Assembly (NCBI GenBank): GCA_965237955.1
Contig: OZ250169.1
Location: 3,520,001-3,584,000, forward strand
Origin: Candidatus Marinacidobacterales bacterium
GTDB taxonomy: Bacteria; Acidobacteriota; Vicinamibacteria; Marinacidobacterales; SMYC01
Direction: 5' to 3'
Length of the DNA: 64,000 nt
Within the stretch, counting starts at the first letter, position 1; each line of letters begins with the position of its first letter. Made by a program: the position numbers and the translations under genes. This document shows, piece by piece, positions 40,980-64,000 of the stretch. The notes under the pieces were generated by a model. It saw nothing but the letters and a program-made list of their open reading frames with translations, was not told the DNA's origin and did not search any database.

Positions 40980-42512
40980 TCACCCGCGAAACAGCTTCCT
41001 CCAGAAACCGCTCTTCGGCTTGTCGTTCACCATACCCAATACGCTCGGCGTGCCGCCGCTCGTCGCTTGCAGGCCTGGGTACTGTGCCTTGTGAATGGCG
41101 AAAGCCTCTTCGGCCTTGGCGCTTAGCAAAGGCATCTTTGGCAGAAGGAACTCGACTATCGCGTCGATGGTAGGCAGCATCTGTTCCCAATCCCAGGATT
41201 CATTGAACCAACCGCGGCTTTCGAACCGACAGAGGACATCCTTGCTGGGCGGCTGTTTGGTCATCTGCTTGAGCGCGTCGCCGTGCTCCACGAGAAACTC
41301 GGACCTTCCGGAGAATCCGAAAGGTGGGCTCTTGAACCGGAAAACCGACTGCTTCTTGGTTACCGCAAGTTCACAGTACAGAATGGGTGCGGGATCATAA
41401 AATTCTGACCATTTGACATAGGCGGCCATCGGAAGAATGTAGCTCCTTCCCTTCGTCTTACCATCCCACGTACGCCAACCACGCTCCTTCAGATGCGGCC
41501 ATAGCACTCCGTGGAGGCGCTCTCGGCTATCTTCTTCTGACCGCGCCTTCTTCATCCGCGCCGTCTTGGATCTGATAGCCGACGCTTTCAGTTTTGACGG
41601 TATGGTGGCTGAGGGCGATCGTTTGGCTTCAAGCTCTTCAGGAGACAACAGACTCTCCCGCAAGCCTGGATCTCGCGCCAAGTCCCACAACCCAAATTTC
41701 AAGTCGTAGCGGCTCAGTACGAAGGCCAGTGCAGCGTCCAGGTCCGCGGCGTTGCCCGCTACTCCATTGTCGAGGAAGTAGGTGACTTTGAAGTCAGCGT
41801 CCACAACAACTGGCTGGTAATCCTTAAACTTCTCCTGGCATAGGCGCAGATCCTCGATAATACTGTCTCGCGCGCGAAGCTCCCGCTCACTAAAGACGCT
41901 CTTCTCTCTATTTGGCCGACCTGTGGCGAACCACGCTCGCAGCTCATCAACGGCAGTTTCCAAGAGCGGCGTGTGCGCCAGGACCATTACGGTGTTCGGC
42001 CATCTTCTAAGGACAGCGTCAAAGGGCGTCTGTTCCTGAGTGTCCCAGGCCGTGGGATGAATACCAAAAAACACGGTAGGTGGGCGAGATGCCTCTATGT
42101 CCTTGTAGCGAAGCGGATGCTCAAGGACGCGGTACCGCGCATTTGTCTTTGACGCATCAATCGTAGAACTGCCGCCAGAATCGTTTCTCCAGAGATCCAT
42201 CAGCAACGCGGCCTCGGGCAGAACGGAGCGCAACCGGACACGCGAGGTGGACCCGTCTTGCTTCAATCGCCGCATCGTCCTAGGAGCCCAAACGAGAGCC
42301 CACGCTCCCTCCCCCTCATCTTGGTCAAGAAGCACGTCAGCTAACGTGCGCGCTGATTCCCACCAACGCTCCGAATACGCCATCGCGGATCGGAGGATAC
42401 AGTCCCACTTGTCGCCAGCGAGGCGCTGCCGTGAGTCAATTCGCTCTCCCGAGTCGAGCGTGGTCATGCCCCCAATCAAGACAATCGTGGGCCCCTCGGC
42501 GGGAGCAGTCAT
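40980..42512 (-). CDS. Hypothetical protein, 510 aa
   Basis: Long uninterrupted ORF with lower GC and a GGAG RBS; no family recognised. Confidence 0.65.
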   Translation of the reverse strand: MTAPAEGPTIVLIGGMTTLDSGERIDSRQRLAGDKWDCILRSAMAYSERWWESARTLADVLLDQDEGEGAWALVWAPRTMRRLKQDGSTSRVRLRSVLPEAALLMDLWRNDSGGSSTIDASKTNARYRVLEHPLRYKDIEASRPPTVFFGIHPTAWDTQEQTPFDAVLRRWPNTVMVLAHTPLLETAVDELRAWFATGRPNREKSVFSERELRARDSIIEDLRLCQEKFKDYQPVVVDADFKVTYFLDNGVAGNAADLDAALAFVLSRYDLKFGLWDLARDPGLRESLLSPEELEAKRSPSATIPSKLKASAIRSKTARMKKARSEEDSRERLHGVLWPHLKERGWRTWDGKTKGRSYILPMAAYVKWSEFYDPAPILYCELAVTKKQSVFRFKSPPFGFSGRSEFLVEHGDALKQMTKQPPSKDVLCRFESRGWFNESWDWEQMLPTIDAIVEFLLPKMPLLSAKAEEAFAIHKAQYPGLQATSGGTPSVLGMVNDKPKSGFWRKLFRG

Positions 42513-43383: not shown

Positions 43384-44470
43384 TGCCTTGGTGCACAACT
43401 CCGATAGAGGCCGAGAGCTCGCTTGGCCCCGACTCCCATCATCCGATCATCTCGCTATCAGGCATCCCGAGCGCCGTCATGGTGTTGAGAATCTTGCACC
43501 CGATCCTTGCCTCAACTCTCTGTGCCGCCAACCCTCTCGCTCGCATCGCTGAGCCCACGATGGCCTTGTAGCGATGGAACGTTGTCTCGACTTTGCTCCG
43601 TTTGCTGTAGCCCGATTCTGTGTGCCACTTTCGTTTGCCGAGCCGAGCTTGTGCTGCAATGTTGCGATTGCGCTGTCGGCTGCTCGCCGGCCCCGATGCG
43701 AGCAGGGCGCCCTTGCGCGGCGGTATCAGCACCCTCGGCGAGCGATGAGCGCTGTGATTCTCGATTGCCTCATAGACACCGCCGGCGTCATATGCGGTGT
43801 CAGCTCTGGCCGATGAGATGGGACTGTCGATCTGTCCGACAAGCGATGCAACCCGCGATGAATCGCGGGCTCTTTTGCTCGTCAGCTCGCCGGCAACGAC
43901 TTCGCCACTCTGCTCGTCGACACACAGATGGAGCTTGCGATAGTCCCTGCTCTTTGGTGCTCTGCGCAGCTGGCCGGCGTGGACAGCGAGACCGCTGCTG
44001 TCGATCAAGATGTGCAACGGCGTCTTCTGCTTGTCTTGGTAGAAGGGGACCTTACCCAGCTTCGCCTTTCGCCTCGAAATCGTGGTGTGATCGGGCACAT
44101 CATTGTCTAGCTTCATCAGAGCGAACAACGATCGCAGCAATCCCTCGCTCTGCCTAGATGACAGATGAAACACCATGCCCAGGGTGACAGCCGTCTCGAT
44201 GGCGTGGTTCGAGTACTTGCGTTGACGGCCCGGTTTCCTCCTCCTCGGCCGGGGCGCGTCCCAGTTCACAAGCTTGCCGGCGGTGAGCGAGATCCAGACG
44301 GTCAGGCTCCCGCGGTTGCGTAGACCCGCCTCATATTCACGCCAATTCCTCACGCGATAGGCCTTCTTCACATACTTCCGCTGAGTGCGTTTGAAAATGC
44401 TCATGGGGAACCTCGTATCCGCGAGTACGGGACAATTGTGGACCGAGATCGCGAGTTGTGCACCAAGGCA
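43384..44470 (-). mobile_element. IS5-family element, copy 4 (1087 bp; transposase 43439-44404)
   Basis: Same TIRs and transposase as copy 1. Confidence 0.95.
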
Positions 44471-45000
44471 GATGGGTGCCGGCAGAAACGGACCCTGCGG
44501 GAGCGGCGTTGCCTGGTGTCTCGTTCGCCATAGCGGCCAGAGCGCGCCGGGTTGTAGCCGAAAGCCCGCCATGGGTCCGGCACTGGCGTTCGTGCAAGAG
44601 AACGCGGCGCATGAAGATACGCGAGAGCGAGCTTGGCGGAGCTGCCCCAAAGGTCTGCTCCCAGACCCGCCGCAAGCTGGCGAAGTCCAAACCGTCCAGA
44701 ACGACGTTCCGGCCAACCCCTGTATCCTGCGGCATCACCGAACGTTCGCTCTTCTGCCCGGTAAAGTCCAGTCTAATGAGAGACTTCCGGGTGCGCAGTT
44801 CACTGCCCGTAGCTCGCCCCGCAGCCGATTTGAGCCAGCCGTGCGCACCACCGGTAGGCCTGTCGCTCGCCACCCGCAGCCCAGGGGTCGGAAGTCAGCC
44901 CTGCGGCGCGAAATACCCGCGATTCTGCGCGGATTCCAAGGGCGTCTAAGCTGCTGATTTGTGGTCTATTTCAAAAGGGCTGAGTTTTGGCACAGGACGG
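44471..45000 (-). mobile_element. rve end + leader + DUF2924 truncated by IS5 (module copy 3)
   Basis: Diverged copy of 33173-33615; ends at GTHL where IS5 begins. Confidence 0.85.
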
Positions 45001-45680: not shown

Positions 45681-46526
45681 CTACTTTTTCTTGCGCGTCC
45701 CGGCGCGAGCCGTCGGCTTCCTGAACGAGGTAGAACGCCTACCTGGTTTCCTTCCGGTCTGCCCAGCGCGCCGACTCTTCTTGGCGAGCGGCGCAAGATC
45801 GTCATCAGAGACCCCACCCATATCGATGTCGACGCCGAAGACCGATGACAGCCTGTCGGATTTGAGCACCCTGCCACTCCGGGACTTGTCTCCAGTCGGT
45901 GGCTGGTCGACGGCGGCCTCCACCATCTCGGCTGGGTCGACACCTCGCAAGGTGAACAGCAGCTCCGGCTCGTGGTCGAGGCGTGCGCCTACGCCGTAGA
46001 GCGTCGCCGCCACGTGCTTGCACATGGTCGCCCAGTCGGGGCACGAGCAACTCAGCGAGATCTCCCGAGGGGCAGGAAACAATCCCTCTCCCTTGCAGGT
46101 CACGATCTCCATCACGCCCTTGGAGATGGAGCCCTGCAGCAGCTCGACCAGCGAGTCGATTTTGCCTGCACATTGGCCCTTGATGTTGGTCCAGCGCTTC
46201 TTCGCCAGGCTTTTGATCTGGGTGTCCACCTCATAGATGTCGGAGCCGCTGACGAGAGATCGCACACGCCCCGCCTCGATCTGAAGATCGATCACCGAAC
46301 CGTTGTGCACGTAGGTTCGGCCGCGAGGCAGGCGGTTCGAGTAGTCGCTGTACGACTCGAGGTTCTTGCACCAAGCATCACCCCAGAAGGTGGTTGCGAT
46401 CTTGCGGCCCACGATCTCGATCGGTGAGATCTCGCGTCCGGCTTTTTTCATCTTAGCGACCCTCTTCGCGGCATGACGGCGGCGCGCTGCCACGGAGACG
46501 TAAGGGCGCCACGAGTACCAGCCCAT
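45681..46526 (-). CDS. SWIM zinc finger protein
   Basis: NRLPRGRTY, CSCPDWATMCKH and LLFTLRG motifs. Confidence 0.92.
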   Translation of the reverse strand: MGWYSWRPYVSVAARRRHAAKRVAKMKKAGREISPIEIVGRKIATTFWGDAWCKNLESYSDYSNRLPRGRTYVHNGSVIDLQIEAGRVRSLVSGSDIYEVDTQIKSLAKKRWTNIKGQCAGKIDSLVELLQGSISKGVMEIVTCKGEGLFPAPREISLSCSCPDWATMCKHVAATLYGVGARLDHEPELLFTLRGVDPAEMVEAAVDQPPTGDKSRSGRVLKSDRLSSVFGVDIDMGGVSDDDLAPLAKKSRRAGQTGRKPGRRSTSFRKPTARAGTRKKK

Positions 46527-46571
46527 GAGCTCACCTCACGCTTTCTTGTGACGAGCGCGTTCGTGCATCTT

Positions 46572-49310
46572 CTATTCCTCCAAGGCGCTGCTCAAGTCGA
46601 GGGACACCATAGAGATCAAATCCTCGTTGCTCATCTCCGTCAAGGCCGACTCCGCACCACCTGAAAGGAGCTTGCCTGCGAGCTTCTGCTTCCCGGCGAT
46701 CAGTTCGTCGATGCGTTCCTCCACCGTGCCCCGGCAGATGAACTTGTGAACGAGTACGTTCTTCTTCTGGCCGATGCGAAAGGCGCGGTCCGTGGCCTGG
46801 TTTTCAACCGCCGGGTTCCACCATCGGTCAAAATGGATGACATGGGACGCCGCAGTCAGATTGAGCCCAGTACCGCCAGCCTTTAGAGAAAGGACCATGA
46901 ACGGTACCCGGTCGTCCTCCTGAAACCTGTTTACCAGCCCTTGGCGCTTCTTGACCGGCGTTCCGCCATGCAGCACGAGGCCGCCGTGACCGAAGACCTC
47001 GGTCAGAAAGCGAGACAGCGGCGCCGTCATCTCGCGGAACTGGGTGAAGACCAGCACCTTATCCTGGCGCGCGGAGATGGACTCGCAAAGCTCGCGCAGC
47101 CGGGCAAGCTTGCCGCTGTCTTCGACCGCGTAGCTTCCGTCGCCGAGCCAATGGGACGGGTGATTGCAGATTTGCTTGAAGCGCATCAGAAAGGCCAGGA
47201 CCATACCGCGCCGCTCGATGCCTTCCAGCTCCTCGATGACCCTCTTCATCTCATCGACCGACTGCTTGTACAGGGCGGCCTGGCGCTTGCTCAGCAGGCA
47301 GTAGGCATTGACCTCGGTCTTGTCGGGCAGATCGGCAATGACTCTCTTGTCGGTCTTGAGCCTTCTTAGAATATACGGCTGCACCAGCCTTCGCAGCGGC
47401 GCGTAGCCTCCTTGCTTACCCGACGCCATGGATTTGCACAGGCCATTGAAGGCCTTCGCCGAGCCTAGCAGCCCCGGATTCAGGAAGTCGAAGATCGACC
47501 ACAGGTCGCCGAGGCGATTCTCCACCGGTGTGCCGGTGAGGGCCAGGCGCCACCGCGAGTCCAGTGCTTTGACCACCCTGGTTTGCTTGGCGCTGGGGTT
47601 CTTGATGGCCTGGGCCTCGTCGAGGATTACGTTCCGCCAGGCATGCGACTTCATCCACTCGGTCCGCATGGCGGTGCCGTAGGTGGTGATCACCGCGTCG
47701 TGGGCATCCACCTTCTCCTTTGGCAGCTTCTTGAGCTCGGGCGAGGGGATGCGCGACGGGTGGGCGATGAGAAACTTCATCTGGGGCGCGAAGCGTTCAA
47801 TCTCCAGGCGCCAGTTGTCGACGAGCGAGGCCGGCACGACCAGGAGGTCGGTACCCTTCTCCTTGTTGCGCCGGCTCATGGACAGCACACCGAGCACCTG
47901 GATGGTTTTCCCCAGGCCCATATCGTCGGCAAGGCAGCCGCCGAGCTCCAGGCCGCGCAGGGTCCAGAGCCACTCCACACCGAGCTTCTGGTAGGGACGG
48001 AGCTCGCCCCGCAAGCCCGCGTCCGAGTCGATCTCGGCCCGGAGCTCAGGCGAGCGCAGCGCGTCGAGCCTTGACGAAAGCCATTTTCCTGCGATGACCT
48101 CCGACCATTCCTGTCGAGCGTCCTCGGTGCCGTTCGAGTCGTCGCCATCGAGCTCGGCGCCAGCCAGCATGCGCATGGCCTCGCCGAAGCTGACTCCGCC
48201 GGCCTGGGCCTGCTTTTGCACGTCCCGCCACTGTTCGAGAACCGCGCCGAGCTTGTCCCGGTCCACCTCGACCCACTTCCCCTTGACCAGCACCAGACCC
48301 TCGCTGGCTTCGAGCAGCATCTCGATCTCCCTCGTCGACAGATTCTTGCCGTCGAGGGTCAGCTTGACGTCGAAGTCCAGGAGCGCGTCCATACCCAGCG
48401 TCGACGGCGCCTTGCCGCCCACCAACACGGAGACCTTGGGACGGGGGTGACTCTTGGCTCCCCACCAGTCGGGCATGCGCACAACGAGACCGGCTTGCTC
48501 GTACAGTGCGATCTCGCAGAGGAAGTGATGCGCCTCCGCGGGTCTCCAGGACAGGGGGTGGTAGATGTTGCCGGAGTCGACCAGCTCGCGGATGAACGCG
48601 CTCTGCCCGGCCGCGCGCGACAAGGGAGAGAGCAGCGCGAGTAGTTTCTGTCGGTTCTTCGCCCCGGCGTAGTCCTTGAGCGCTCGCCCGAGGGGCAGGT
48701 GCTGAGGCTTGGCCTCCTTGGAGACCTTGTGAACATAGGTCGCGATGAAGGCGAAGGGATACGAGGGGTCGCGTTTGTTCTCGGCCAGGTGGAAACAGAC
48801 CCGGCCGACCACGTTCCATACCGAGCCCTGCTTCTTCAGGTATCCCTGGACGCCTAGCTCAAACCGTGCTGCTTCGGTGGTCAGGGCCTTCCCGATGTCG
48901 CGCCACAGCTCGCCGAGCATCGAGGGTGTGATCAGCTCGGCGCCCTGCATGGGAGGGGCCGCCTGGGTGAAATCCGAGAGCTCGTCCGGGGCGGGCTCGG
49001 GCACGACCAGAGACGTTGGGTCGGTTGGATCCAACCCGCCACAGACCCTGACCACCAAGGCCTTCCCGATGTCGCGCCAGTACGAAAGTGTAGGGTGAAG
49101 GTCGGTGCTCAGCTCTCCCACTCCCAGATGTAACACCCCATGCCCGCGCCCCACGTTGAACGCATCGATAATGCGCCGTTGCACTGCGGCGGACAGGCCC
49201 GTGCCCTCATCGGGCGAGCCGAGGTGGACGTCAATGCGGCCGCTCGGGGTCAATCCGCAAAGAAGGGTGGCGTTGGCCCCGGTGGCACTATCGTGGAAAA
49301 GCTGCCTCAT
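46572..49310 (-). CDS. SNF2/SWI2-family helicase
   Basis: LRPYQ, LADDMGLGKT, LDEAQ, LTGTPVEN, SGKL, SLKAGGTGLNL and WNPAVENQATDRAFRIGQ motifs. Confidence 0.95.
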   Translation of the reverse strand: MRQLFHDSATGANATLLCGLTPSGRIDVHLGSPDEGTGLSAAVQRRIIDAFNVGRGHGVLHLGVGELSTDLHPTLSYWRDIGKALVVRVCGGLDPTDPTSLVVPEPAPDELSDFTQAAPPMQGAELITPSMLGELWRDIGKALTTEAARFELGVQGYLKKQGSVWNVVGRVCFHLAENKRDPSYPFAFIATYVHKVSKEAKPQHLPLGRALKDYAGAKNRQKLLALLSPLSRAAGQSAFIRELVDSGNIYHPLSWRPAEAHHFLCEIALYEQAGLVVRMPDWWGAKSHPRPKVSVLVGGKAPSTLGMDALLDFDVKLTLDGKNLSTREIEMLLEASEGLVLVKGKWVEVDRDKLGAVLEQWRDVQKQAQAGGVSFGEAMRMLAGAELDGDDSNGTEDARQEWSEVIAGKWLSSRLDALRSPELRAEIDSDAGLRGELRPYQKLGVEWLWTLRGLELGGCLADDMGLGKTIQVLGVLSMSRRNKEKGTDLLVVPASLVDNWRLEIERFAPQMKFLIAHPSRIPSPELKKLPKEKVDAHDAVITTYGTAMRTEWMKSHAWRNVILDEAQAIKNPSAKQTRVVKALDSRWRLALTGTPVENRLGDLWSIFDFLNPGLLGSAKAFNGLCKSMASGKQGGYAPLRRLVQPYILRRLKTDKRVIADLPDKTEVNAYCLLSKRQAALYKQSVDEMKRVIEELEGIERRGMVLAFLMRFKQICNHPSHWLGDGSYAVEDSGKLARLRELCESISARQDKVLVFTQFREMTAPLSRFLTEVFGHGGLVLHGGTPVKKRQGLVNRFQEDDRVPFMVLSLKAGGTGLNLTAASHVIHFDRWWNPAVENQATDRAFRIGQKKNVLVHKFICRGTVEERIDELIAGKQKLAGKLLSGGAESALTEMSNEDLISMVSLDLSSALEE

Positions 49311-49619: not shown

Positions 49620-50292
49620 TGCCTTGGTGCACAACTCCGATAGAGGCCGATAGCTCGCTTGGCCCCGACTCCCATCATCCGATCATCTCGCTATCAGGCA
49701 TCCCGAGCGCCGTCATGGTGTTCAGAATCTTGCACCCGATCCTTGCCTCGACTCTCTGTGCCGCCAACCCTCTCGCTCGCATCGCTGAGCCCACGATAGC
49801 CTTGTAGCGATGGAACGTTGTCTCGACTTTGCTCCGTTTGCTGTAGCCCGATTCTGTGTGCCACTTTCGTTTGCCGAGCCGAGCTTGTGCTGCAATGTTG
49901 CGATTGCGCTGTCGGCTGCTCGCCGGCCCCTATGCGAGCTGGGCGCCCTTGCGCGGCGGTATCAGCACCCTCGGCGAGCGATGAGCGCTGTGATTCTCGA
50001 TCGCCTCATAGACGCCGCTGGCGTCGTATGCGGTGTCAGCTCTGGCCGATGAGATGGGACTGTCGATCTGTCCGACAAGCGATGCAACCCGCGATGAATC
50101 GCGGGCTCTTTTGCTCGTCAGCTCGCCGGCGACGACTTCGCCAGTCTGCTCGTCGACACACAGATGGAGCTTGCGATAGTCCCTGCTCTTTGGTGCTCTG
50201 CGCAGCTGGCCGGCGTGGACAGCGAGACCGCTGCTGTCGATCAAGATGTGCAACGGCGTCTTCTGCTTGTCTTGGTAGAAGGGGACCTTACC
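49620..50292 (-). mobile_element. IS5-family element, copy 5, truncated by an rve mini-element
   Basis: One TIR plus the 3' two-thirds of the transposase. Confidence 0.92.
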
Positions 50293-50890
50293 CCGTCCTG
50301 TGCCAAAACTCGGCCCTTTTAAAATAGACCATAAATCAGCAGCTTAGTGTCTGTGTTTGAGGTTCTAGAGTGCGCCCCGCAGGCGCGTATATCCCCCCCA
50401 CGTCGGGTTCTCCTGCGCCACGCGTACAATGAGCTCACGGATGTCCTTCGCCGTCGGAGGTCGGCCTGGGCTCCGGTTCTTGCTGCCATCGTACTTGGCT
50501 GCGATAAGGTAGCGGTACCAGCGCAGAAGCGTAGCGGGTGTGGCAACGGACGCAATCTGGGCCAGCGCCTCGCGGCCCAAAGCCTGGGCCCTTGACGGCG
50601 AGCCTGCGCCGCTCGTCGTCCGAGAGCCTGAGACGCTTGCCCCGAAGCCCGGCTCGGAGCACACGGTTCTCCTCTTGCTGGTAGTCGATCACATCCTGCT
50701 GCTGGCGGTTGACCCAGCCAGCTAGAACGAGCAGTAGGAATTGCACGTGGTACGTCATCATGGATCTGAAGATAACACCCTCGGGCCAGACGATTGTAAA
50801 GCCTACGGCCCTTGGTCCGGTCGCAAACACAGACACTAAGCTGCTGATTTATGGTCTATTTCAAAAGGGCCTAGTTTTGGCACAGGACGG
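50293..50890 (-). mobile_element. 598-bp internally deleted rve-type IS with both ends
   Basis: Inverted CCGTCCTGTGCCAAAACT ends; contains the frameshifted 5' third of the 57015 transposase. Confidence 0.88.
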
Positions 50891-51010
50891 GGTCGAGCAA
50901 GCCATGAACGCCTACGCCGGTCTCGACGTCGTTCACCGTACGGAGAACGAGACCGTCTTCGAGATCGTCGCTTCCGGCGAGCGTCGTTGATCGGTGAAAC
51001 GATTTGTTGC

Positions 51011-51036
51011 AGAAATCTTGCCCGGGCAAGATTTCT
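51011..51036. promoter_or_regulatory. Perfect 26-bp palindrome upstream of the sulfatase
   Basis: AGAAATCTTGCCC|GGGCAAGATTTCT. Confidence 0.45.
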
Positions 51037-51133
51037 TGCCAGATGACGCGTCGCGGATCGAAAAAAGGATTCAAAACGCGGAACTTGATTTCTGCAGTGC
51101 TTTCCGTATTCTGCGCGTGTTGGAGTCATTGTT

Positions 51134-52648
51134 ATGCCGCGACTCACCGCGTTTGGAGTTCTGTTGGCGTGGGCAGCCTGTACGACGTCGCCGCCGGAGG
51201 CGCCTGCCGAGCCCGACCGGCCCAATGTTCTCGTAATCTTCTACGATCAATACCGCCCTGACATCGTCGGGGCCTACGGCGGGAAGAACATCACCACGCC
51301 GAACCTCGATCGCCTCGCCGAAGAAGGCGTGCTGTTCACCAACGCGCTCTCGACAACTCCAGTGTGTACTCCATATCGCGGCATGATCATGACCGGACGT
51401 TACCCGACACACACGGGAATCATGCTGAACTTTCTCGAGGCCAACACATCGCAAACGAATATCGCCGATGTGTTCTCGGCAAGCGGCTATCGCACCGCGT
51501 TCATGGGCAAGTGGCATCTTGCCGCGGGCAGCCACAAGATGGCGTGGGTCGGACAAGAACAAGGCTCGTGGGAGCACGCGCAGCCTTACGTCGATGAGAA
51601 TCCCCACTATAACTTCGTGCCTCCCGGACCCGCCCGACTCGGTTTCGAGGATTGGGCCGCGTTCAACTTCCACGTCGATTTCCTCGCCGCCCCGTACTAC
51701 CGCAACGAGCGTGAGAAGCTCATCATGGACGGCTACGAGTCGGACGCGTTGACCGACATGGCGATCGACTACATGGAGGAAGCACGACTGGCCGACGCAC
51801 CGTTTTTCATCATGGTCGGGCCGCATCCGCCCCACTCGCCCTTCGATCGGCTGCCGGAAGGCTACCTCGAACAGGTGCCCGAGACGCTTCACTGGGACGA
51901 CAACGTGCCGGAGGAAATGCAGACTGGGAAAAACCTAGAGGAAGCCCGCGCGTACTACGCGATGGCGAAAAACGCGGACGACAACATGGGGCGCATGCTC
52001 GACTATCTCGACGAGTCCGGATTGACCGACGACACGGTCATCGTCTTTACGTCCGATCACGGCTCGATGCTGGGAAGCCACGGACGCCGCAACAAGATGG
52101 TCCCTTACGACGAGGCGGTACAGGTGCCGCTTCTCATGCGTTGGCCGGGCCGGTTGACGTCTGGCTCTCGCACCGACACGCTCCAGACGCCTCTCGACCA
52201 CATGCCGACGCTTATCGCGATGGCGGGCCTCGAGGTGCCGGACGGACTGGACGGGATCGACCTCAGCCACGAGCTACTCGACGGGAGCTCCGTCGAGCGC
52301 GAGGCAGTATTAATGAGCAACTACACCGCGCACTTGGACTACTACATGACCGCGACCCAGCCCGGTGGCAACTGGCCGGAGTGGCGCGGAGTGAAGTCGA
52401 AGCAATACACCTACGCGCGATGGATCACGGGCGAGACCGAGCTTTACGACGATCTGGCCGATCCCGAGCAATTGAACGACTTGAGCGACGACCCGGCTCA
52501 CGCGGCCGCCGTGGAAGAGCTGGAGGCGACGCTTCAGAAACTCCTCGCCGAAGCGCACGATGAGTTCTTGCCCGGAAATGCCTTCGTCGATTGGGTTGAT
52601 CGGGAGCGCAACATTATTAAGACAGGCCTCCGACCCGTCGCGCCATAA
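51134..52648 (+). CDS. Formylglycine-dependent (Cys-type) sulfatase, probable lipoprotein
   Basis: RPNVLVIFYDQ, CTPYR (CxPxR), TGRYP, GKWHL, PHPPH and FTSDHG motifs; WAAC lipobox. Confidence 0.95.
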   Translation: MPRLTAFGVLLAWAACTTSPPEAPAEPDRPNVLVIFYDQYRPDIVGAYGGKNITTPNLDRLAEEGVLFTNALSTTPVCTPYRGMIMTGRYPTHTGIMLNFLEANTSQTNIADVFSASGYRTAFMGKWHLAAGSHKMAWVGQEQGSWEHAQPYVDENPHYNFVPPGPARLGFEDWAAFNFHVDFLAAPYYRNEREKLIMDGYESDALTDMAIDYMEEARLADAPFFIMVGPHPPHSPFDRLPEGYLEQVPETLHWDDNVPEEMQTGKNLEEARAYYAMAKNADDNMGRMLDYLDESGLTDDTVIVFTSDHGSMLGSHGRRNKMVPYDEAVQVPLLMRWPGRLTSGSRTDTLQTPLDHMPTLIAMAGLEVPDGLDGIDLSHELLDGSSVEREAVLMSNYTAHLDYYMTATQPGGNWPEWRGVKSKQYTYARWITGETELYDDLADPEQLNDLSDDPAHAAAVEELEATLQKLLAEAHDEFLPGNAFVDWVDRERNIIKTGLRPVAP

Positions 52649-52739
52649 CCGTGGCACTCCCTCGCCTCTGCTCTACGAGAACATTCTGTCTCGTGAAGAG
52701 GCACAGAGGGTATCGCGACCCGTACCGCATTTCGGAGGA

Positions 52740-53395
52740 CTAGTCCGTCTCGCGCGCCAGTCCTGTCCGCAGGATCTCCTCGACCTCGTCGGGATCGAAG
52801 TAGAACGGACCCATCCCACCTTTATAAATGATGCGGCCGTCGGTCCCGACGACGTAGAGTCGCTCCGGCCACGCCGCGTAGCACGCCATCGCTGTGTTGT
52901 TGATGTCGTCGAGCAGCGTTTCCGTCTCTCGACATCCATCTGGTCGACGAAGGCGCGTGCGAGCTCCCTGCGCTCTTCGGTGGTCGTGGGCTGGGTGTAG
53001 ACGACGCCACTCTCCTCGTTGGACTCCATCTGCCACTCGTCGTCGGGATGGGCTTCTTTGATGTACACGATGACGAAGTTCGCGACGTCGCTGTACTTCT
53101 TTTCCAGCTCTTCGATCTGCGCCAGCCTGGCGCGAAATGGTGGTCACGTGTAGCTACCGAACGTCAGCACGAGTGGTTTGTCGGCGTAGAGATCCGAGAT
53201 GCGATGCATCTGCCCACCGTCGGTCGCAAGTAGCTCGACATTTGGGGCCAAATCCCCAACCTGGAGCGACCCCTCGGAACGGATGTCGTACTCGTTGATA
53301 CGGATCCAGGCGCGTTTCTGGGCTTCCATGAAGCCCCAACCGCCAAGAGCCGCGACGATCAGCACCGCCAAAATGGCTCCAATCCACTTCTTCAT
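52740..53395 (-). CDS. Iodothyronine deiodinase-like selenoprotein (FGSYTUPPF), N-terminal TM anchor; 2-nt frameshift at ~52927
   Basis: KPLVLTFGSYT-UGA-PPFR, VYIKEAHPDDEW, YAAWPERLYVV and IIYKGGMGPF motifs reassembled from three ORF fragments. Confidence 0.88.
53119..53146 (-). promoter_or_regulatory. Putative bacterial SECIS hairpin
   Basis: UGA, 10 nt, then GCGCCA-GGC-UGGCGC. Confidence 0.65.
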
Positions 53396-53507
53396 CGCAT
53401 CCTCCTACTGATGGCTAGCGGCCGGCCGAGCGATTTTAAACGAAACGCACAACCAACTCCTCGGCCTCTTCGCTAATGCGTGGTCGCCTGCTTCTATCCT
53501 TGCCTGT

Positions 53508-56642
<3,135 letters not shown>

Positions 56643-56885
56643 GCTATATACCTCCCAAATCGAGGCATCCTACCCGACGTGATATGAGAAGTATATGAAG
56701 CTTCTGCTGCCGCTCCTGATGACGACCAGTCTTGCCGCCCTCGCCCACCTCTGCTATCGTCCCGGAGCTAGGCCCTGGAATGTCTCCGCCTTCATCGGGC
56801 TGTCTTCGGCCTGGGTGGACTGAGCGAAGAGTACCCTGAAGCCCCACCGTGGGCCCTTAGCTACTGAAGCCGATTTCGATGCTCC

Positions 56886-58317
56886 CCGTCCTGTGCCAAA
56901 ACTCGGCCCTTTTGAAATAGGCCATAAATCAACAGCTTAGTGTCTGTGTTTGCGCCGGGGCCAAGGGCCGTAGGCTTTACAATCGTCTGGCCCGAGGGTG
57001 TTATCTTCAGATCCATGATGACGTACCACGTGCAATTCCTACTGCTCGTTCTAGCTGGCTGGGTCAACCGCCAGCAGCAGGATGTGATCGACTACCAGCA
57101 AGAGGAGAACCGTGTGCTCCGAGCTGGGCTTCGGGGCAAGCGTCTCAGTCTCTCGGACGACGAGCGGCGCAGGCTCGCCGTCAAGGCCCAGGCTTTGGGC
57201 CGCGAGGCGCTGGCCCAGATTGCGTCCGTTGCCACACCCGCTACGCTTCTGCGTTGGTACCGCTGCCTCATCGCAGCCAAGTACGATGGCAGCAAGAACC
57301 GGAGCCCAGGCCGACCTCCCACGGCGAAGGACATCCGTGAGTTCATGGTACGCATGGCGCGGGAGAACCCGACGTGGGGATATACGCGCCTGCGAGGCGC
57401 ACTCAAGAACCTAGGACATGAACTCGGACGCAACACTATCAAGAGGCTCCTCGCCGACCACGGTATCGCGCCTGCCCCGGAGCGGGGCAAGAGCATGTCG
57501 TGGAGCACCTTCATCAAGGCTCATTGGGGCGCCATCGCTGCGACAGACCTGTTCACCGTCGAGGTTGTGAACCCGTTCGGGCTCGTCCGCTACCATGTCC
57601 TGTTTGTCATCGATATCGCCACTCGCTGCGTGTGCATCGGTGGGATAACGTCGGACCCCAACGGGGAGTGGATGAAGCAGGTGGCAAGAAACTTCACTGA
57701 CATGTGGAATGGTTTCCTCCTTGGCAAGCGATACCTCATCCACGACCGGGACCCACTATTCACCGAGGCGGTACGTGGGCTGTTGAGAGATTCAGGCGTG
57801 AAGCCCCTGCGCCTTCCCGCCAATAGTCCGAATCTGAACGCATACGCGGAAAGATTCGTTCTCTCCATACGTCGAGAGTGTCTCGACCGCTTCGTACCTC
57901 TCAGTGAGCGACACCTGCGCACAGCGGTAACCGAATACGTAGTGCACTATCACAACAGAACGGAACCACCAAGGTCTCGGCAACGAGCTCCTCACACCTC
58001 TGCCGGCAAGCGCGAATGACGCTGGCCCCATCGTGTCGCGAGAGCGACTTGGGGGCATTCTCAACTACTACTGCCGTGCCGCGTAGATGGTCGCCGGCGA
58101 CGGTAGCCCCTCGGCGGGCTCGACCGGCGTAGCGTGGAAACAGCTTCAGGAACATGCTTCGATATTCGCTCTCGACTAGGTGGTCATCTGCATGGTGACG
58201 ACCCGCCTGCCCAAGACGATTGTAAAGCCCACGGCCCTTGGCCCGGTCGCAAACACAGACACTAAGTTGCTGATTTATGGCCTATTTCAAAAAAGGCCGA
58301 GTTTTGGCACAGGACGG
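56886..58317 (+). mobile_element. Full-length rve-type (IS481/IS3-related) IS, type 1, with ~103-bp TIRs; transposase 57015-58086, frameshifted ~57955
   Basis: ENPTWGY, ATDLFTV, LIHDRD and [18 protein letters not shown] motifs; 56886-56988 is inverted at 58214-58317. Confidence 0.9.
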
Positions 58318-58403: not shown

Positions 58404-59291
58404 CTAAGTGATTCTGCCCCGCTTCGATGCGTACGTTTGTAGCCACTTCACAACGCCATCAAAGTCTCGACCGTCGAGACTAGGCTCAGTAAGAATGAAT
58501 TTGGTCGCTGCTGGCGTGAAGCTCGATGTGGTTACAACAATCCCTTTCGTCGCACGAGTCGAACCATGCGTGATGACGCCAAGGAGCGCCCGGGCGATGT
58601 CCGGTCCGACCGGTCGGTCTTGGGCGTAACGCTTGCACTCGAAGGCACATACCATTGAAATCCCATGCACCGTCATAGTTGCGACGACGTCTCGGCCTTC
58701 ATCGCCTGATAGGGGGGTCAGGACAACATTCTCGAACCCAAGCTCATCGACTAGCGCCGCGATGAAACTCTCGAAGTCCCGCGCCTCTAGCGCTCGCATT
58801 GTCTCGGGATCGCGCAGCACCCTGTCAAGCGCACAAATAGGAGCGAATTCCACCTGTTGCAGTCTGTCAAGAGTTTCGGGCGGCACCAATTCGACGAGTT
58901 GACCGTGGATCTGTTTCTCCAAATCCTCATTTGGTTTGTCCTCGTCATACTCGAGGTCTAACTCTCCGACGGTCGAAGCATCCGCAACGGCGTCGCTGAG
59001 TCTGAGGTAGGCGGGTCCAAGATGCTCCCAGTCCGTCGCGGAGAGCGCCGCGCTCAGATCCGGAAGGGCTCGAACGGCATACCCCAGAGCGTGGCTGGTC
59101 GCCCGAAGAGACTGGAGATCAGGTATCGAAGCCTGGAAGGCCTGGTAATGCTCTGCCAGTTCGGCTGCTCGAATTCCGAAGCGGTCGTCGAGAAGCAAGC
59201 GCAGGGTCATATCGCTTTCGATCTGACGGCGGATTGGTTCGAAGCTGTCGAGCATCCGCTGGATTTGTCGAACGGCGTCCAGGTAGTTCAT
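58404..59291 (-). CDS. Mrr-like (type IV) restriction endonuclease domain protein
   Basis: FESFIAAL, SGDEGRDVVA, FECKRY and GIVVTTSSFT Mrr_cat motifs. Confidence 0.85.
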   Translation of the reverse strand: MNYLDAVRQIQRMLDSFEPIRRQIESDMTLRLLLDDRFGIRAAELAEHYQAFQASIPDLQSLRATSHALGYAVRALPDLSAALSATDWEHLGPAYLRLSDAVADASTVGELDLEYDEDKPNEDLEKQIHGQLVELVPPETLDRLQQVEFAPICALDRVLRDPETMRALEARDFESFIAALVDELGFENVVLTPLSGDEGRDVVATMTVHGISMVCAFECKRYAQDRPVGPDIARALLGVITHGSTRATKGIVVTTSSFTPAATKFILTEPSLDGRDFDGVVKWLQTYASKRGRIT

Positions 59292-61962: not shown

Positions 61963-62343
61963 CCGTCCTGTGCCAAAACTCGGCCCTTTTGAAATAGGCC
62001 ATAAATCAACAGCTTAGTGTCTGTGTTTGCGCCGGGGCCAAGGGCCGTAGGCTTTACAATCGTCTGGCCCGAGGGTGTTATCTTCAGATCCATGATGACG
62101 TACCACGTGCAATTCCTACTGCTCGTTCTAGCTGGCTGGGTCAACCGCCAGCAGCAGGATGTGATCGACTACCTGCAAGAGGAGAACCGTGTGCTCCGAG
62201 CCGGGCTTCGGGGCAAGCGTCTCAGTCTCTCGGACGACGAGCGGCGCAGGCTCGCGGTCAAGGCCCAGGCTTTGGGCCGCGAGGCGCTGGCCCAGATTGC
62301 GTCCGTTGCCACACCCGCTACGCTTCTGCGCTGGTACCGCCAC
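61963..62343 (+). mobile_element. rve type 1 IS, left part only
   Basis: Near-identical to 56886-57262; interrupted by the type 2 element. Confidence 0.9.
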
Positions 62344-63694
62344 CCGTCCTGTCCGAAAATGCGAACGGAGCCGAAAGCTCGAATCCTGGAGACGTTCTCG
62401 AGATTCGCGGAGACCAGCCGACACGGCACTGGCTCTGCGATAGGCACTCCCGAGCAGACCTCTCCCGCAGACCATCCGTTTCGTCCAGCTGGCGCGCCCG
62501 AACTCCTATGCGGCGGCGCGGTGGTAATAACTGAGCAAACCGCCCAATCGCTTACGACATCGCACCTTCCCGTGAGGACTGCCGACGCATTCTTCCGCTT
62601 CGAGCAACGCGTTCCCGAGCCCTTGATGGTTGCGCTCTCCGTGATAATGATGGATGAACTCAGCGACGGCACGGCGCAGCGATTGCTCACTGAAGAAGAT
62701 CATCCGCTCCAAGCACTCGCTCTTGATCGACAAAACAAACCTTTCGACGTAAGCGTTCAGATTCGGCGAACGGTGCGGCAGCCGAATGACGTCCGTTCCG
62801 GCGTGCTTGAGCAAATCGCGAAACTCCGTGGTGAACTTCTTGTCGCGGTCCAGGATGAGGAATCGCTTGCTGCGCAGAAAGCCGTCGAATGGGTAGGTGA
62901 GATTCCGACCGACCTGCATCATGAACGCGCCGTCCGGCCCGGGAGTTATTCCGGCAATGTGTACTTTTCGCGAAGACAGCTCGATGACGACGAGCACATA
63001 GTAGGTCACGAGCCTGCGAACTGTGGCGACCTCGACGGTGAAGAAGTCGGTCGCAGCAACGGTTTCCCAATGGGCGGCGAGAAACGTGCGCCATGGCGTC
63101 CGCTCACTTCGCTCCGGCGCAGGCTCGATGCCATGTTCTCGCAGAATATTGGCGATGGTGCTCCTGGCTACGGTATGGCCGAGATTCGAGAGGGCGCCGC
63201 GAATGCGTGTATACCCCCACCTCGGATTCGACTTCGCCATCCCCTACGACAAGCTTGCTAATCTCGGCCATGACCCGGGGCCGTCCGGGCTGTTTCCGCC
63301 GCTCGCTGTAGTTCCACTTCCGCGCAATCAGCCTTCGGTGCCAAGCCAGCAGGGTTTCCGGTGTGACGATACCGGCGACTTCTGCCAAGAGTTTCCGGCC
63401 AAGCGCCTTACCCTTTACCGCGAGCCGACGTCGCTCATCGTCTGTGAGACGAAGCCTCCTCCCGCAGAGCCGAGCTTTGAGGACTTTGTTCTCCTCGAGC
63501 AAGTAGACGATAGCGGCCTGTTGGTCACGCTGGAGCCAACCAGCGATTGCGACGACCAACAGTGTCAAGGGCTGGACCGGCGTGCTCATGACCGAGGATT
63601 CTAGCTCCCATTGGCCAATCAAGCGTAGATACGTCTATTCCGAAACGTCCCGGCGAGCTGGTCTTGAGTTCGTTTGTGTTTTTGGACAGGACGG
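62344..63694 (-). mobile_element. rve type 2 IS; transposase 62506-63589, frameshifted in a C run at ~63241
   Basis: ~26-bp TIRs CCGTCCTGTCC(G/A)AAAA; [13 protein letters not shown] and NAYVERFV motifs. Confidence 0.88.
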
Positions 63695-63726
63695 GCCCGT
63701 ATACATCTTCAGCGGAGGGAGTTGCG

Positions 63727-64000
63727 ATGGACTGGAAGACCAGGCTGACCTAACATCTCAGGGTCCGTGGATGAGGAGTTGCTCCTGCGCAACGGGTATC
63801 TTGTGGCCGAGAATCGATTTTTCGAAATCAGATCCAAGGGCGCTTGCGCCCGACCGATGGCGAAGGGCGGTCTCTGGCGGAGCTCGGAAAGCGCCTGCAG
63901 CGACCTGTTACATCAGTCCGAGCGCAAGGTGCGCTTCCGTGAACGGCTTGGCGGGTTGCTACGTTTCTACCATCGGGAAGTCGCACGAGTATTTTGACCT
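63727..64000 (+). pseudogene. Degenerate, internally deleted rve type 3 transposase
   Basis: MDWKT...VDEELLLRN.YLVAENR joined to RERLGGLLRFYHRE and the end motif GAGTATTTTGACCT. Confidence 0.7.

Follow-up and report, generated by a model that had tools for sequence, protein, structure and literature searches.

A deiodinase-like selenoprotein gene of an acidobacterial genome, missed by ORF calling, and what its product may do

We asked whether an interrupted reading frame in the genome of a Candidatus Marinacidobacterales bacterium is a single selenoprotein gene related to the animal iodothyronine deiodinases, and what its product would do in a bacterium. The frame lies in the window, that is, the whole stretch of 64,000 nucleotides that was analysed. 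In its accessible part, the founding paper of 2005 (PMC1088965) defines a prokaryotic family by the profile PF00837 together with a bacterial SECIS, describes four Sec and six Cys deiodinase-like sequences with this element and proposes for them a general redox role unrelated to the thyroid. The accessible parts of PMC9312934 and PMC13188914 tabulate the family with the motif UxxC, and the 2026 review of this pair regards them as largely uncharacterised. As the family is defined in the founding paper by PF00837 and SECIS, we take UxxC as the reviews' example motif and not as a defining one. The window gene is a further member of this known, functionally open family, and the gene call itself is ordinary, the family having been predicted since 2005. 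Among the papers listed by literature searches, we found no biochemical study of bacterial members and nothing relevant on dehalogenation or on the NCBI family name in bacteria; the supplements of the catalogue papers may list UxxF members. The practical value of the call is that these genes are stored as fragments in databases while the family is common in the phylum, where it occurs in 62 of 401 sampled genomes (match threshold 1e-15; one genome in the tally is unpublished and supports no sequence claim).

Reading of the in-frame UGA

52740..53395, minus strand: gene of a deiodinase-like selenoprotein; the intact allele has 217 codons, the window allele 2 nt more; intact orthologue L014 in genome G009
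53401..53406, minus strand: Shine-Dalgarno-like AGGAGG, 5 nt before the ATG, from sequence
53144..53146, minus strand: in-frame TGA, inferred Sec84 (U84), aligned with Sec170 of mouse Dio3
53119..53133, minus strand: bacterial SECIS-like hairpin with a 6-bp stem and a GGC loop, starting 10 nt after the TGA

The gene runs on the minus strand from an ATG at 53395 to a TAG at 52742-52740, and the motifs described in the earlier note could all be located. The TGA at 53146-53144 sits in FGSYT*PPF, YIKEAHPDDEW follows in the same frame, which is correct to residue 156, and the frame of YAAWPERLY and YKGGMGP is reached after removal of 2 nt from the GAGAGA run at 52930-52925. The length of about 217 aa, estimated in the same note after this correction, is that of the intact orthologue in G009, a genome of the same family as the window genome but of a different genus: it has 217 codons and 98.5% DNA identity, 4 of the 217 residues differ, and the 2 nt of the GA run are the sole gap. 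ORF calling had indeed missed the gene, returning an 83-aa fragment and pieces with wrong starts. When the TGA was read as U, the T4_deiodinase profile (PF00837), suggested earlier as a check on the readthrough product, matched the N-terminal part with 86.2 bits and the C-terminal part with 40.2 bits (cut-off 27); each half alone exceeds the cut-off, so the match is not due to chance. A promoter and terminator scan of 52500-53700 gave no promoter-like site and one terminator-like site, which is the chance level. Among RNA runs, X18 yielded one 208-nt contig over the TGA and X19 none; as a DNA control is lacking, we do not take this contig as a sign of expression.

The selenocysteine machinery, whose presence the earlier note had proposed to confirm, is complete in the window genome (8.13 Mb, one contig): selA (543.9 bits), selB (365.9) and selD (275) all score above their cut-offs, and the tRNA-Sec (selC) is present. 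The selD gene (L008, G000:C1:4040942-4043190) occupies the C-terminal portion of a longer open frame, about 750 aa in length, with CGGC as its active-site stretch and no TGA; the N-terminal half is, judging from a motif, presumably an FAD-dependent oxidoreductase. In alignments to the orthologue, TGA occupies position 84 in 47 of 47 loci (44 distinct). PF00837 matched in 22 of 61 related genomes, and 26 of the 28 matches carry the TGA, the other two coming from frameshifted copies, of which they are the C-terminal halves. Of these 22 genomes, 20 have selB, and the two misses are drafts that are 91% and 73% complete. Cys homologues, which had also been proposed as a check, turned out to be common. 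Among the 143 cluster representatives that cover the Sec site, the residue is Cys in 127, Trp in 8, Ser in 5 and another one in 3, and Cys is likewise found in 70 of 70 long fusions and in the homologue P0042. Neither of the two observations that the earlier note named as refuting, a genome without Sec machinery or homologues without Cys or Sec at this position, was therefore made. Three proteins (P0197, P0198 and P0202) consist of two deiodinase-like domains in tandem, the catalytic site being Cys in the first domain and Ser or Ala in the second. In G031, a 73% complete genome in which selB was not found, a TGA-containing deiodinase-like domain (L030) with a poor hairpin opens a 694-aa frame that has a further C-terminal domain.

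Could the TGA instead be a real stop, leaving two small genes or a pseudogene, or else be read as Trp? The databases do hold the gene in split form, since C-terminal fragments starting after the TGA make up 119 of the 120 best matches, and Trp is present at the site in the 8 representatives mentioned above. However, in several phyla the TGA is fixed at the position of the catalytic Cys, the Sec machinery is complete and synonymous codons are constrained in the hairpin. Moreover, neighbouring genes end at TGA, so the codon does not mean Trp genome-wide, and the Trp cases probably stem from gene-calling under another code. With 119 of the best 120 matches being fragments, mis-annotation of these genes is general. 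We consider a stop or a Trp codon highly improbable and conclude that the UGA is almost certainly read as selenocysteine, a degree of confidence that applies to the selenoprotein identity alone.

The SECIS-like hairpin is weak when taken alone, as its folding energy is not significant (z -0.23 for 100 nt) and 5.7% of 20,000 random TGAs carry an equally good hairpin by our own rule. Comparison between loci makes a stronger case for this candidate element. We used 21 loci chosen from 47, without duplicates, distant members or the SCTU clade, in which the hairpin lies about 4 nt further downstream. Of the cells in the inner four pairs, 82% are paired, a value as high as this being found in 0 of 500 shuffles, and two of the four pairs show changes on both sides. 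A control slid by -1 gave a higher covariation score (0.34 vs 0.225 for the hairpin), but its pairing reached only 54%. The second Arg of PPFRARLA is encoded by AGG, which forms the loop, in 11 of the 11 close loci that encode PPFRARLA. In the genome as a whole AGG makes up 5.8% of Arg codons, and in the remainder of these genes 13 of 168. Since the sequences are related, the pairing and AGG comparisons are to be read as support and not as p-values.

The two-base insertion and its genomic setting

52925..52930, minus strand: GA run, 6 nt here against 4 nt in the intact allele, causing a +2 frameshift after residue 156
51081..56767, no strand: three-gene block, 97% identical to G009, between IS-like repeats, a likely recent transfer
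51134..52648, plus strand: sulfatase gene, convergent neighbour, not a conserved partner (profile match and neighbourhood comparison)
53508..56642, minus strand: Sortilin-Vps10/BNR repeat protein gene, located upstream in the same orientation, no conserved partner (profile match and neighbourhood comparison)

As assembled, the window allele encodes 156 correct residues followed by 84 unrelated ones. It would thereby lose Cys171, Pro176 and Arg178 and be inactive, in a genome that has a second, intact copy. This paralogue (L001, G000:C1:7474980-7475633) is 79% identical, has the same TGA, hairpin and Cys171, and is a better experimental candidate than the window copy. The earlier note had treated the 2 nt as a slip to be inspected at 52927. 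Eight runs were compared, all as contigs, X2, X3, X18 and X19 being without coverage of the frameshift site. In the four informative runs (X1, X4, X5 and X6, from four studies), all listed bridging contigs are without the 2 nt, so that the intact allele is the common one; one of them, of 961 nt with 3 substitutions, spans the TGA as well. On the other hand, X1, the best-matching run, has a contig with 0 differences over 929 nt that ends at 52928 and another that begins at 52927. These are the edges expected for a bubble between a 4-nt and a 6-nt GA run and suggest both alleles; moreover, about 9 of 46.7 depth units at 52925 come neither from deletion-bearing contigs nor from the one ending there, with 228 pieces of the run outside those listed.

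Both the contig ends and the unaccounted depth in X1 would fit a real loss-of-function variant that segregates with the intact allele in a redundant, recently transferred copy. A similar 2-nt GA-type length difference at 52688 separates strains, an intact paralogue is at hand and the block looks recently transferred. Against this stand the bridging contigs of all four runs, X1 included, and no listed contig carries the window allele. A recurrent long-read error could produce the same bubble, and the mere 4 amino acid differences from the intact orthologue mean that there has been no further decay. We estimate the chances of a real variant and of a read or assembly error as about even; since the frameshift may be real, the assembled strain may have no active product from the window copy. 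The unique alignment of the window assembly to G009, on which a background frameshift rate was attempted, amounts to 19.5 kb, too little for an estimate. Programmed phase variation at the GA run was ruled out, since the run has only 2-3 units and is absent from the paralogue. A second damaged copy occurs in the lineage: the orthologue L021 (G013), at 95% identity, breaks into unrelated sequence after residue 195.

The block at 51081-56767 has likely been transferred recently, judging from its identity to G009 and the flanking IS-like repeats. In a 400-kb sample of G009, 217 kb could be aligned, of which 155 kb are 60-80% identical; 43 kb are at least 90% identical, so such exchange is not special to the deiodinase-like gene. 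Many other blocks of at least 90% identity are common to the two genomes. IS-like genes or fragments lie in the window at 43439-44716, 49810-51074, 56940-58019 and 62017-63997, the first of these elements having about 80 near-full-length genomic copies and that at 56940-58019 about 33. The window also encodes, on the minus strand, a SWIM zinc-finger protein beside an SNF2 helicase (45681-49310), a protein with an Mrr-type restriction endonuclease domain (58404-59291) and a 510-aa ORF for which Pfam gave no match at E 0.01 (40980-42512).

The position between a sulfatase and a VPS10 protein, noted earlier, was borne out, the latter as a Sortilin-Vps10/BNR protein, but neither is a conserved partner. 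Across 95 loci, a close VPS10 orthologue adjoins the gene in just two genomes, G009 and G013, both of one genus, and a close sulfatase orthologue in G009 alone; three other neighbour matches are 27-29% identical members of large families, with about 38 and 16 clusters in the genome. As they are not conserved, these genes carry no functional information, and neighbours were ruled out as a functional clue. A profile scan of 72 of the 95 listed flanking proteins (21 loci) found no recurring pathway or halogen-metabolism family; the only recurrence among them is an adenylosuccinate lyase adjoining three Vicinamibacteria/Acidobacteriota copies. Longer relatives of the protein are fused mostly to EF-hand or TPR domains, and these fusions name no substrate.

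Active site, second cysteine and proposed function

53327..53383, minus strand: hydrophobic helix (residues 5-23 with a mean hydropathy of 2.25), a predicted membrane anchor of likely N-in/C-out topology
52881..52883, minus strand: Cys171 codon, candidate resolving cysteine, located after the frameshift

Recoding, anchor and fold are well supported. The N-terminal membrane anchor claimed earlier corresponds to residues 5-23, as a prediction. Of 21 sequences, 17 have a higher net charge on the N-terminal than on the C-terminal side of the helix, while 3 show a tie and 1 the reverse, and a DsbD membrane domain is encoded in the window genome; from these two points, the catalytic domain likely faces the periplasm. 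The closest PDB sequence matches are mouse Dio3 (6.5e-28) and Dio2 (2.1e-22), the next one being at 1.2e-4. The orthologue as modelled by AlphaFold2 (29 sequences, pLDDT 85.4) combines a thioredoxin core with an N-terminal helix, and in a Foldseek search with this model 4TR3 and 9H48 came out as the top two, followed by ResA-type proteins (ResA, DsbE, CcmG, Bcp).

We compared the active site with that of Dio3, taking residue roles from the accessible parts of PMC7506546 and PMC11592359. The residues kept are Ser167, Thr169, Sec170, Pro171, Pro172, Arg176, Tyr197, Glu200, His202, Trp207, Gln218, Arg225, Glu259 and Arg260. Five of the six members of the proton-relay set (Ser167, Thr169, Tyr197, Glu200, His202 and His219) are thus in place. 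Replaced are Cys168 (Tyr82 here), His219 (Pro136), Cys239 (Thr157), Tyr257-Phe258 (Trp175-Pro176) and Arg275 (Met194). These changes are common to the family: position 136 is Pro in 120 of the 120 best close homologues. The basic residue for the thyronine carboxylate (Arg275 in Dio3, Lys241 in Dio2) is absent: position 194 is Met, Val, Ile or Thr in the same number of best close homologues and Arg or Lys in none, whereas 61 of 143 more distant Cys-type relatives have Arg there. His at the His219 site occurs in 7 of 143 representatives, all with bacterial-type motifs, and no animal deiodinase is recognisable among the best 150 representatives. Neither the proximal Cys168 nor the distal Cys239 has a counterpart, and Cys171 is the only other cysteine. 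By alignment, the catalytic centre is deiodinase-like, with thyronine-binding residues and animal redox cysteines not kept. Of the earlier designation as an iodothyronine deiodinase-like selenoprotein, the deiodinase-like part stands, whereas the protein is very probably not an iodothyronine deiodinase proper because His219, Arg275, Cys168 and Cys239 of Dio3 are not kept.

A second Cys is found in the catalytic domain of 71 of 75 homologues (74 genome loci and P0042, leaving out duplicates, frameshifted, truncated or divergent loci, eight distant loci failing the motif pattern and one unpublished genome). It lies at position 171 in 21 of them, at 149-150 in 23, at 132 in 12, at 82 in 11 and at 87 in 4; the four Sec-type homologues with none are L047, L061, L103 and L104. 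In a tree of 87 rows with a midpoint root, which includes 12 of the 70 long fusions, Cys149-150 marks most groups outside a 46-row clade (support 96/95); 69 of 70 fusions carry it as well, as do 103 of 143 representatives. The 46-row clade includes the anchored forms, is without Cys149-150 and contains three supported subclades, with Cys82 (99/97), Cys132 (97/98) and Cys171 (100/99), the last holding the window gene and having two of its 23 rows without a second Cys. On the midpoint root, this pattern suggests that Cys149-150 was lost and a second Cys then gained three separate times, which in turn suggests that a resolving Cys is usually needed. In open full text, most subscription papers being outside that coverage, we found no paper on clade-specific second cysteines.

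We tentatively propose that the intact allele encodes an anchored selenoenzyme, likely facing the periplasm, that likely dehalogenates an aromatic compound other than thyroxine. What is observed is the position of the TGA, the Sec machinery, the conserved hairpin, the kinship with Dio3 and Dio2 with an agreeing predicted fold, the residue changes and the clade-specific Cys. In the proposed mechanism, SelB would bind the hairpin and allow insertion of Sec84, whose selenolate would attack an aryl iodide or bromide at its halogen; the network of Ser81, Thr83, Tyr111, Glu114 and His116 would meanwhile hold the lid loop and supply a proton. Cys171 could then resolve the oxidised Sec to a selenenyl sulfide, which a DsbD-type relay would re-reduce.

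A halogenated aromatic is only our best guess at the substrate; we favour it because the ResA-type matches lack the Tyr/Glu/His network, which is invariant in the bacterial members (Tyr111, Glu114 and His116 in 75 of 75 and 70 of 70 homologues). However, the accessible part of PMC7506546 describes the Glu200 network as largely a structural anchor, so that the network could be conserved without the chemistry being shared. The reductive dehalogenase profile PF13486 gave three weak partial matches, which are uninformative. Pro176, which aligns with the Pro of GVPE in the thioredoxin-family structure 3kcm and thus occupies the cis-Pro position, fits a thiol-disulfide role and argues against a dehalogenase, and the 4 of 75 homologues without a second Cys argue against Cys171 as the resolving residue. 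The same selenoprotein might therefore be a general thiol-redox enzyme of the envelope which, like ResA/TlpA or an atypical 2-Cys peroxiredoxin, reduces disulfides, sulfenic acids or peroxides, with Cys171 resolving. The ResA, DsbE, CcmG and Bcp matches that follow Dio3 and Dio2, a weak NCBIfam ResA match, Pro at the cis-Pro site in 75 of 75, 70 of 70 and 141 of 143 homologues, the anchor together with DsbD, the EF-hand and TPR fusions and the lack of conserved catabolic neighbours all point that way, as does the redox role proposed in the available text of PMC1088965. It is harder to reconcile with the missing CxxC, with the missing peroxiredoxin Arg and with the near-invariant deiodinase-specific lid loop (Glu-Ala-His, Trp), which implies a specific small-molecule site. 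We hold this general redox role to be a serious possibility, placed narrowly second to aromatic dehalogenation.

If the protein were a true iodothyronine deiodinase, with T4, T3 or close analogues as substrates, this would explain the identity to Dio3, the shared anchor-linker-core layout, the retention of the S-x-T-U-P-P-F, EAH and ER motifs and the occurrence of SCTUPPF, as in Dio3, in a related bacterial clade. We nevertheless judge it very unlikely, given the replacement of the equivalents of His219, Arg275, Tyr257, Phe258, Cys168 and Cys239; furthermore, a family present in 62 of 401 genomes is too widespread for a thyroid-hormone role, an argument also made in the accessible part of PMC1088965. 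Coming back to aromatic dehalogenation, one could imagine a large overlooked class of envelope selenium-dependent aromatic dehalogenases from which animal deiodinases arose, the anchored branch having lost the helix Cys and re-invented a resolving Cys three times, once as the SCTU of Dio3. We regard this wider scenario as rather improbable.

Relation to known systems

As a small single-domain member 38% identical to Dio3, the protein is a tractable route to deiodinase chemistry before thyroid hormones, and the clade-specific second cysteines bear on which Cys recycles Sec in animal deiodinases, a question discussed in the accessible parts of PMC7506546 and PMC11592359. Several known systems can be set beside it. 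With ResA, TlpA, CcmG and Bcp it shares the extended thioredoxin fold, the membrane anchor and Pro at the cis-Pro site; it differs from them by the added deiodinase lid loop and, compared with the CxxC of ResA/TlpA, has UxxF, position 87 being Phe. Peroxiredoxins have Arg at the cis-Pro position according to the accessible part of PMC2757866, whereas the window protein has Pro176. The NCBIfam model NF038285 (deiodinase_rel, 347 positions) is matched over its positions 177-340 (E 6.8e-55), but the score of 186.9 bits is below the cut-off of 250 and the first half of the model has no counterpart in the window protein.

The resemblance to the prokaryotic deiodinase-like selenoproteins of the 2005 family covers PF00837, the UGA at the catalytic position, the SECIS-like hairpin and the existence of Cys homologues. 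The UxxC of the reviews' table is not found in the window gene, which has UxxF with its second Cys at 171. Indeed, Phe stands at +3 from U in 68 of 75 rows, as in the UPPF seen here, and UxxC is confined to 4 of 75 rows, in a distant clade only. That clade of the same family (L027, L028, L029, L032, L033 and L034) has FTUPYC or YTUPYC and no membrane anchor, and G013 and G017 carry both the anchored and the UxxC type. With DIO1-3, finally, the window protein has in common a thioredoxin fold with the deiodinase insertion and an N-terminal membrane helix, in the order anchor, linker and core, as well as S-x-T-U-P-P-F and the Tyr/Glu/His/Trp lid-loop network, at 38% identity to Dio3 (4TR3) and 29% to Dio2 (9H48) over 187 columns. 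It differs from them in that its SECIS-like element lies inside the coding region and its predicted topology is periplasmic.
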